Shown here in pieces: positions 8,110-8,312 of a stretch of DNA of 64,000 nt; position 1 is the first letter of the stretch; each line of letters begins with the position of its first letter. Both the position numbers and the translations under genes were made by a program. The notes beneath the pieces were generated by a model, which was not told the origin of the DNA, did no database searches, and saw only the letters and a list, made by a program, of their open reading frames with translations. Origin of the DNA: Escherichia coli (GTDB taxonomy: Bacteria; Pseudomonadota; Gammaproteobacteria; Enterobacterales; Enterobacteriaceae). The stretch is taken from NCBI RefSeq assembly GCF_003334405.1, contig NZ_QOWM01000001.1. One strand, written 5' to 3'.

Positions 8110-8312
8110 AATGCCGGATAAGGCATTTTACGCCGCATCCTGTGCCTGATGCGACGCTGGCGCGTCTTATCAGGCCTACAAATCCGAGCCGTAGGCCGGA
8201 TAAGGCGTTCACGCTGCATCCGGCACCCGGAGCCTGATGCGACGCTGGCGCGTCTTATCAGGCCTACAAACCGAGCCGTAGGCCGGATAAGGCGTTTACG
8301 CCGCATCCGGCA
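8110..8312. repeat. REP/BIME palindromic repeat cluster (two ~89-bp units) in nrdA-nrdB spacer
   Basis: Repeated gcctgatgcgacgctggcgcgtcttatcaggcctacaaa...ccgagccgtaggccggataaggcg units. Confidence 0.85.

Follow-up and report, generated by a model that had tools for sequence, protein, structure and literature searches.

REP sequences of Escherichia coli are imperfect palindromes of 30-40 nt with a conserved GTAG at the foot, and fall into the types y, z1 and z2; in BIME-2, z2 and y units stand in tandem and in inverse orientation with short linkers between them, in numbers that vary by locus and strain (Ton-Hoang et al. 2012). BIME-2 belongs to a dispersed family of non-autonomous repeats that is thought to have been spread by the REP-associated transposase TnpA-REP. 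A well-described member is REP325, the yjdM-yjdN BIME-2, a cluster of six repeats with two palindromic units each, which works both as an attenuator, in part through Rho, and as a stabiliser for the gene upstream of it. The Rfam naRNA4 model (RF02564) is built on one Y-Z2 unit of REP325; a 2026 preprint, where REPs across the genome bring no uniform change of mRNA half-lives, contests the function in the nucleoid that was proposed for naRNA4. For nrdAB itself, the accessible text of a 2025 paper names the operon as a previously reported REP-containing transcript of the study by Liang, Rudd and Deutscher (2015), and gives the outcome of that study as a lowering of upstream translation only where a REP and the stop codon are <16 nt apart, the cause being that ribosomes stall and the mRNA is then cleaved.

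The window analysed here, the whole 64,000-nt stretch of DNA, is E. coli sequence close to K-12 MG1655 and runs reversed relative to MG1655 2.29-2.355 Mb. MG1655 is colinear with its first 20 kb at 99.975% identity, so that the array between nrdA and nrdB is the same element, in the same operon, as the nrdAB REP of Liang et al. (2015). The intercistronic spacer covers 8088-8320 (233 nt). The features of the locus are as follows, with the evidence for each in parentheses:

8321-10606, minus strand: nrdA CDS, class Ia ribonucleotide reductase alpha subunit (ORF list and MG1655 annotation)
8323-8321, minus strand: nrdA stop codon UGA (ORF list and MG1655 annotation)
8278-8312, minus strand: Y-type REP no. 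1, reading UGCCGGAUGCGGCGUAAACGCCUUAUCCGGCCUAC on the mRNA (nhmmer E=1.3e-10; fold -21.3 kcal/mol)
8268-8277, minus strand: tail-to-tail linker of 10 nt, mRNA GGCUCGGUUU, between CUAC and GUAG (sequence)
8232-8267, plus strand: Z2-type REP no. 1, in the orientation opposite to the Y units (nhmmer E=7.5e-12; fold -22.8 kcal/mol, z -5.0)
8191-8225, minus strand: Y-type REP no. 2 (nhmmer E=3.8e-10; fold -18.2 kcal/mol)
8143-8179, plus strand: Z2-type REP no. 2 (nhmmer E=5e-12; fold -21.9 kcal/mol)
8113-8140, minus strand: Y-type REP no. 3, degenerate (nhmmer E=3.3e-4, confined to model positions 5-33; fold -11.8 kcal/mol)
8086-8121, plus strand: yoaM (b4779), 11-codon ORF antisense to the nrdB start (MG1655 annotation; Weaver et al. 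preprint)
8095-8098, minus strand: nrdB Shine-Dalgarno AGGA, beyond the REP structures and mostly unpaired in the fold (sequence)
6957-8087, minus strand: nrdB CDS, ATG start at 8087 (MG1655 annotation)
6703-6957, minus strand: yfaE, downstream of nrdB (ORF list and MG1655 annotation)

The ORF track gives nrdB as 6957..8318(-), 453 aa from a TTG at 8318, against the annotated ATG at 8087. The 453-codon frame is an artefact of read-through into the repeats, with a false extension of 77 codons; an artefactual N-terminal extension of nrdB caused by the REPs had been recognised in a first, sequence-only reading of the window. The ACAGGA motif at the nrdB Shine-Dalgarno is kept in nearly all related species (spacers of 35 species viewed).

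Direct reading and a repeat finder resolve 8111-8312 into two direct repeats of 87/88 nt that are 93-94% identical and carry nested inverted repeats, each direct repeat being made up of two palindromes. An nhmmer scan with a REP profile finds five units in the spacer, in alternating orientation and in the order Y-Z2-Y-Z2-degenerate Y. The profile was built from six units of the window itself, and two independent checks were therefore added: the 14-mer CTTATCMGGCCTAC, allowing at most one mismatch, has 19 matches in the window against 0.02 expected from shuffles, and a 601-nt query finds, per genome, a median of at least 33 places across 5,426 complete E. coli genomes. The sequence-only reading had filled this spacer with REP pairs. 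Its assignment to REP/BIME is borne out by both the profile and the 14-mer, which detect the palindromic REPs whose absence it had named as the result that would count against it; the description as pairs gives way to one of five units, of which the nrdB-proximal one is decayed.

The REP units measure 35-37 nt and are imperfect palindromes that fold with an internal bubble. GTAG/CTAC feet are present on four of the five spacer units and missing from the degenerate, nrdB-proximal unit at 8113-8140, which has lost the 5' GCCG of its stem as well as the CTAC tail. Tail-to-tail linkers are 10-11 nt and head-to-head gaps 2-6 nt; two tandem units of 87/88 nt are found here, in a copy number that differs among E. 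coli, and all REP units of the window lie between annotated genes. Because every sequence-level feature by which Ton-Hoang et al. (2012) define these elements is present, the nrdA-nrdB element is a BIME-2, of an ordinary and already described kind. It has in common with the E. coli BIME-2 described by Gilson, Bachellier and Hofnung and by Ton-Hoang et al. (2012) the alternation of Y and Z2, the feet, the mismatch bubble in the stem, the short linkers, the extragenic site, the tandem repetition and the strain-variable copy number; nothing essential differs, the nrdB-side unit being truncated here and without its CTAC tail. A supplementary table of the 2026 preprint lists the ubiG/yfaL element as REP163 and the yfaE/inaA element as REP165, and from these neighbours we infer that the nrdA-nrdB element is REP164 of MG1655. 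No REP164 is among the entries listed in the part of that supplement available to us, its Rho/NusG table included; the text of the preprint does not discuss nrdAB, and the RefSeq annotation of MG1655 has no repeat_region feature in the nrdA-nrdB spacer.

Like REP325, the nrdA-nrdB element is a tandem Y-Z2 array inside an operon, with co-oriented flanking genes, and both match RF02564 above threshold. They differ in size (five units at nrdA-nrdB), in that the above-threshold match at nrdA-nrdB is antisense to the operon, and in the flanking genes, which here encode the two subunits of a single essential enzyme. With 76.4 bits, the match at 8194-8264(+) exceeds the gathering score of 59.5; sense-strand matches in the spacer reach 41.4 and 34.3 bits, below that threshold. 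There are eight RF02564 matches in the window, and since the model derives from a Y-Z2 unit, a match means a BIME-2 unit and not an RNA gene. The malE-malF REP, the classic 3' stabiliser, is likewise an intercistronic REP pair after the first gene of its operon that could protect the upstream segment; its upstream product is needed in large excess. NrdA and NrdB form an alpha2-beta2 enzyme, so a large bias between the subunits is not expected.

The minus-strand genes are faced by yoaM, which is translated according to the preprint of Weaver et al.; the transcription start given there precedes the yoaM start codon by 174 nt. This transcription start would lie near window position 7912 (+) and MG1655 position 2,347,559, inside nrdB and aimed at the BIME, so an antisense RNA should run from within nrdB into the array, on the same strand as the Rfam naRNA4 match. 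The yoaM stop codon TAA falls within the degenerate REP at 8113-8140.

Structure prediction gives the sense-strand transcript of the spacer a fold of -120 kcal/mol and its shuffles one of -89.5 (z -6.5); such a prediction for this intercistronic transcript was one of the two checks that the sequence-only reading had proposed. Folded singly, the four intact REP units reach -18 to -23 kcal/mol, well beyond the value for the decayed unit. In the minimum-free-energy fold of the whole spacer distant REP units are joined, and the exact structure in the cell is therefore uncertain. Nine unpaired nucleotides, UAUUGAGAU, separate the nrdA UGA from the first paired base of Y no. 1, a spacing that falls within the 15 nt that Liang et al. 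(2015) give for a REP hairpin near the upstream stop. After the Y hairpins the mRNA continues with ACGGCUCGG. No U-tract stands after any spacer REP, and a scan of 8088-8320 finds no terminator-like site on either strand; an intrinsic (Rho-independent) terminator was accordingly dropped as an explanation, there being no hairpin with a U-tract in the spacer. A scan for promoter-like sites finds none on the sense strand of the spacer.

We consider it probable that the array is best explained as a BIME-2 in the nrdAB mRNA that stalls ribosomes at the nrdA stop codon and so lowers NrdA. Transcribed within the nrdAB-yfaE mRNA, the array would form a row of stable hairpins, its copy number presumably shifting by recombination between the 87/88-nt units. 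Since 9 nt separate the nrdA UGA from the first hairpin, a ribosome terminating there would collide with it; going by the literature on nrdAB, from which we take stalling at this array as reported, the collision would lead to mRNA cleavage and ribosome rescue and would keep NrdA output below the potential of the transcript. By analogy with other REP arrays, the hairpins probably also form a barrier to 3'-to-5' exonucleases and a weak Rho-assisted attenuator. nrdB would be translated independently, from its own exposed Shine-Dalgarno downstream of the array. The nrdAB mRNA is said to have been the model transcript of the 2015 work, with relief when RNA helicase was overexpressed and under UV stress.

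The sequence-only reading had suggested that an element inside the operon could modulate the relative expression of the subunits, which agrees with the published work as represented in the accessible text of the 2025 paper and with a hairpin 9 nt after the nrdA stop. With nrdAB among the transcripts used in the 2015 study and its 15-nt rule holding here, the idea of subunit balance is already in the literature; what is added beyond the literature consulted is modest, namely the allele variation in E. coli and the conserved hairpin position in related species. The supply of DNA precursors is set by ribonucleotide reductase; how much of its two subunits is present, and in what proportion, thus influences replication and the mutation rate, and the nrdA-nrdB array is among the few REP elements with a concrete published mechanism, ribosome stalling at a stop codon.

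Representative spacer alleles were fetched and compared, and the coverage of two of them was counted over the 5,426 complete E. coli genomes:

233 nt: five REPs; this window, K-12 type
241 nt: five REPs, with an 8-nt linker duplication CTACGGCT; L007 (strain 3908)
226 nt: five REPs; L006, the length being found also in two O157:H7 genomes
146 nt: three REPs, one 87-nt unit fewer; L004
189 nt: a different subtype, with four diverged REPs; L008
88 nt: without REP, carrying the palindrome CCCCTCTCCCC...GGGAGAGGGTTAGGGTGAGGGG; L005 (T16R) and L009 (2012C-4431)

A query specific to the 88-nt allele was covered to at least 80% in 1,684 of the genomes (31%), and the K-12-type query to the same extent in 3,712. 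Among the rows of an evenly spaced sample with alleles other than the 88-nt one (n=16), the three-REP length occurs 8 times, the 233-nt length 6 times and the 226-nt length twice, which gives rough frequencies only. With no spacer REP in 31% of genomes, the BIME is dispensable for an essential operon, and any effect it has would be one of tuning and not a requirement.

The 88-nt allele has a composite hairpin that starts 5 nt after the nrdA stop. Its palindrome is a dispersed repeat in its own right (median 14 places per genome) and appears to resemble the enterobacterial 'boxC' family. The elements that stand in this place in Enterobacter cloacae and Pluralibacter are similar to it as well; no boxC-like copy occurs within the 64-kb window. 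In L007 the tandem 8-nt duplication lies in the tail-to-tail linker, at sense-strand spacer positions ~125-140, and starts from the CTAC foot, which TnpA-REP reportedly cuts at C|T (Ton-Hoang et al. 2012), and the duplication may be a footprint of element turnover.

The spacer was followed beyond E. coli with a degenerate pattern at the nrdB start, which gave 120 loci, one per species; a candidate nrdA stop was placed in 112 of these (one spurious), and the 109 spacers of at most 400 nt were analysed. They measure 42-333 nt (median near 100), the Enterobacterales maximum being the 240 nt of E. albertii. A hairpin of -15 kcal/mol or lower, beginning no more than 15 nt after the nrdA stop, is found in 94 of the 109 spacers and in 21 of 109 shuffled ones, the control being shuffled spacers and not other intercistronic spacers. 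The median hairpin energy over the 109 spacers is -19.6 kcal/mol, compared with -10.8 after shuffling, the species being related and the observations thus non-independent.

The sequences that supply the hairpin differ among these species. REPs of the E. coli type are present in the E. coli species representative (3 units), E. albertii (5), Salmonella enterica subsp. arizonae (1) and several Citrobacter (1-2), and also in Yokenella, Intestinirhabdus and one Superficieibacter. Klebsiella, Raoultella, Leclercia and others have REP-type pairs of their own with CTAC/GTAG feet, and Enterobacter cloacae and Pluralibacter carry boxC-like palindromes in the spacer. By the criterion of the scan, a T-run follows a plain G+C-rich hairpin in Kosakonia, Citrobacter freundii and Serratia; Buttiauxella and Cedecea show the same pattern on inspection, and Pantoea has a plain hairpin without the T-run. 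A crude sort of the 109 spacers yields 47 of REP type, 8 of boxC type, 15 that are terminator-like, 28 with other hairpins and 11 with none within the limits of the scan. A hairpin thus almost always follows the nrdA stop, and the element supplying it has been repeatedly replaced and is variable within E. coli. This constancy may reflect selection of the structure, or palindromic repeats may land preferentially at or beside existing hairpins.

A broader reading of these data, put forward tentatively, is that what is conserved is a structured slot, a hairpin within about 15 nt of the nrdA stop across Enterobacterales and Pasteurellaceae, whose fillings are interchangeable. The fillings might then comprise terminator-like hairpins, genus-specific REP pairs, boxC-like palindromes and, in Escherichia, BIME-2, though we hold this with little confidence. 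It is conceivable, if doubtful, that the E. coli series of five-REP, three-REP, diverged four-REP and boxC-type alleles tunes NrdA output, the NrdA:NrdB ratio and dNTP supply by lineage. Both the replacement of alleles and the near-universal hairpin matter only if the alleles truly differ in NrdA or NrdB output.

The same variability could have a simpler origin, in which an untranslated gap after a stop codon tolerates the insertion and amplification of a selfish REP element that has no selected effect on nrdAB. Presence, absence and copy number do vary strongly within E. coli, the family is dispersed over tens of places per genome, the nrdB-side unit is decaying, and the duplication of CTACGGCT in the L007 linker resembles mechanical turnover. 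Yet stable structure starts no more than 15 nt from the nrdA stop in all alleles, the REP-less one included, the hairpin keeps its position in related species far more often than in their shuffles (94 against 21 of 109), and the published experiments, as far as the accessible accounts go, report an effect on nrdAB; we therefore regard neutral insertion as rather unlikely. A stronger possibility, although one we place somewhat short of an even chance, is that the array is mainly an mRNA decay barrier, a partial Rho-dependent attenuator or both, the alpha:beta ratio being set at the level of RNA and not of termination. The nrdA segment would then be stabilised against 3'-to-5' exonucleases, with less read-through into nrdB-yfaE. 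Operons that decay differentially commonly carry protective 3' structures according to the differential-decay study, and 15 related species have a terminator-like hairpin with a T-run at the same position; against this, nrdAB is absent from the main text of that study, the entries listed in the accessible Rho/NusG table of the 2026 supplement include no REP164, and the spacer has neither a U-tract after any REP nor a terminator-like site. Decay protection and attenuation, which we extend to nrdA-nrdB by analogy, can operate together with ribosome stalling.

Ribosome stalling at the nrdA stop has further to be weighed against roles in which the mRNA hairpins play no part. The array could serve the DNA, as a strong site for DNA gyrase or a topological barrier in a highly transcribed, cell-cycle-regulated operon: published BIME-2 elements are enriched for gyrase cleavage sites, mainly in their Y units and independently of transcription, and most BIME-2 sites are reported to fall between supercoiling domains. 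Just a subset of BIME-2 is cleaved, however, the accessible text of the source does not name the nrdA-nrdB locus (MG1655 2,347,151-2,347,383), and the element is missing from 31% of genomes, which makes this role unlikely. Far less probable is a naRNA4-like nucleoid-associated RNA, read from the plus strand antisense to nrdAB, that binds HU and bridges DNA. The above-threshold RF02564 match at 8194-8264(+) and the antisense transcription start ~174 nt upstream of yoaM, directed into the array, would fit such an RNA, but the Rfam model is in effect a Y+Z2 pair that any BIME-2 unit matches, as eight do in the window, and in the 2026 preprint the founding REP325 itself shows neither nucleoid compaction nor HU-dependent REP-REP contacts. 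A tiling-array study would make the palindromes an internal promoter or operator for nrdB, presenting GCCTGATAAGACGCGCCAGCGTCGCATCAGGC, which lies upstream of nrdB, as a 'novel common promoter' motif of UV-induced genes, with a near-copy upstream of nrdG. This motif (window 8143-8179 and 8232-8267) is exactly the Z2 REP, which is repeated all over the genome, and the spacer has no promoter-like site on the sense strand, so that the proposal is effectively refuted. The 222-bp RRS/TRIP1 'replication risk sequences', G+C-rich repeats of similar size, are unrelated and lie at lysO and dusC. No data on the nrdA-nrdB element were found in the two CRISPRi studies consulted. For annotation, the array thus extends nrdB falsely, matches Rfam naRNA4 with no RNA gene implied, and has been mistaken for a promoter motif.

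The window contains further REP clusters, located by nhmmer:

6655-6691, minus strand: lone REP directly downstream of yfaE, where the nrdAB-yfaE operon ends, with inaA convergent (REP165; E=1.3e-6, and supplement table)
15076-15110(+) and 15122-15159(-): Y + Z2 pair between convergent ubiG and yfaL (REP163; also in the supplement table)
35246-35280(-), 35292-35328(+), 35360-35394(-) and 35406-35442(+): four alternating REPs between convergent rcsB and rcsC
47165-47746: large BIME array in the eco-mqo spacer, with about 12 REPs and 113-nt units
60864-60898(+) and 60934-60963(-): ccmH-narP pair, a Y followed by a short Z1-like REP

The sequence-only reading had placed REP elements in the last four of these spacers, and its gene assignments at nrdA-nrdB, yfaL/ubiG, rcsC/rcsB and ccmH/narP agree with the MG1655 annotation. 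The yfaL/ubiG pair and the large mqo-eco array are recovered as described; the convergent rcsC/rcsB cluster is real and has four units, with its start moved from 35252 to 35246, and the ccmH/narP pair is found with its type refined. The single REP after yfaE was missing from its list for this finding; the 2026 supplement tabulates REP165 as a hairpin common to convergent transcripts, in the gap between them. The rcsB/rcsC cluster gives two Rfam naRNA4 matches above threshold. The eco-mqo array (47211-47773) has one 113-nt unit more than in MG1655, a case of BIME copy-number variation between close relatives.

The layout of the ccmH/narP pair is that of a BIME-1-like (RIP/RIB-like) element and not of BIME-2. 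Its linker, 35 nt at 60899-60933, holds ATCAATTTATTG on the minus strand (~60917-60928), a predicted IHF site in that it matches what we take to be the IHF core consensus, ATCAANNNNTTR. Relative to MG1655 the window is without 3,193 bp in the yfaS pseudogene region (near window position 22193; MG1655 2,330,085-2,333,277), and so does not come from MG1655 itself. The MicF small RNA is identified at 39100-39193 (-), with an Rfam score of 114 bits, adjoining ompC as expected.
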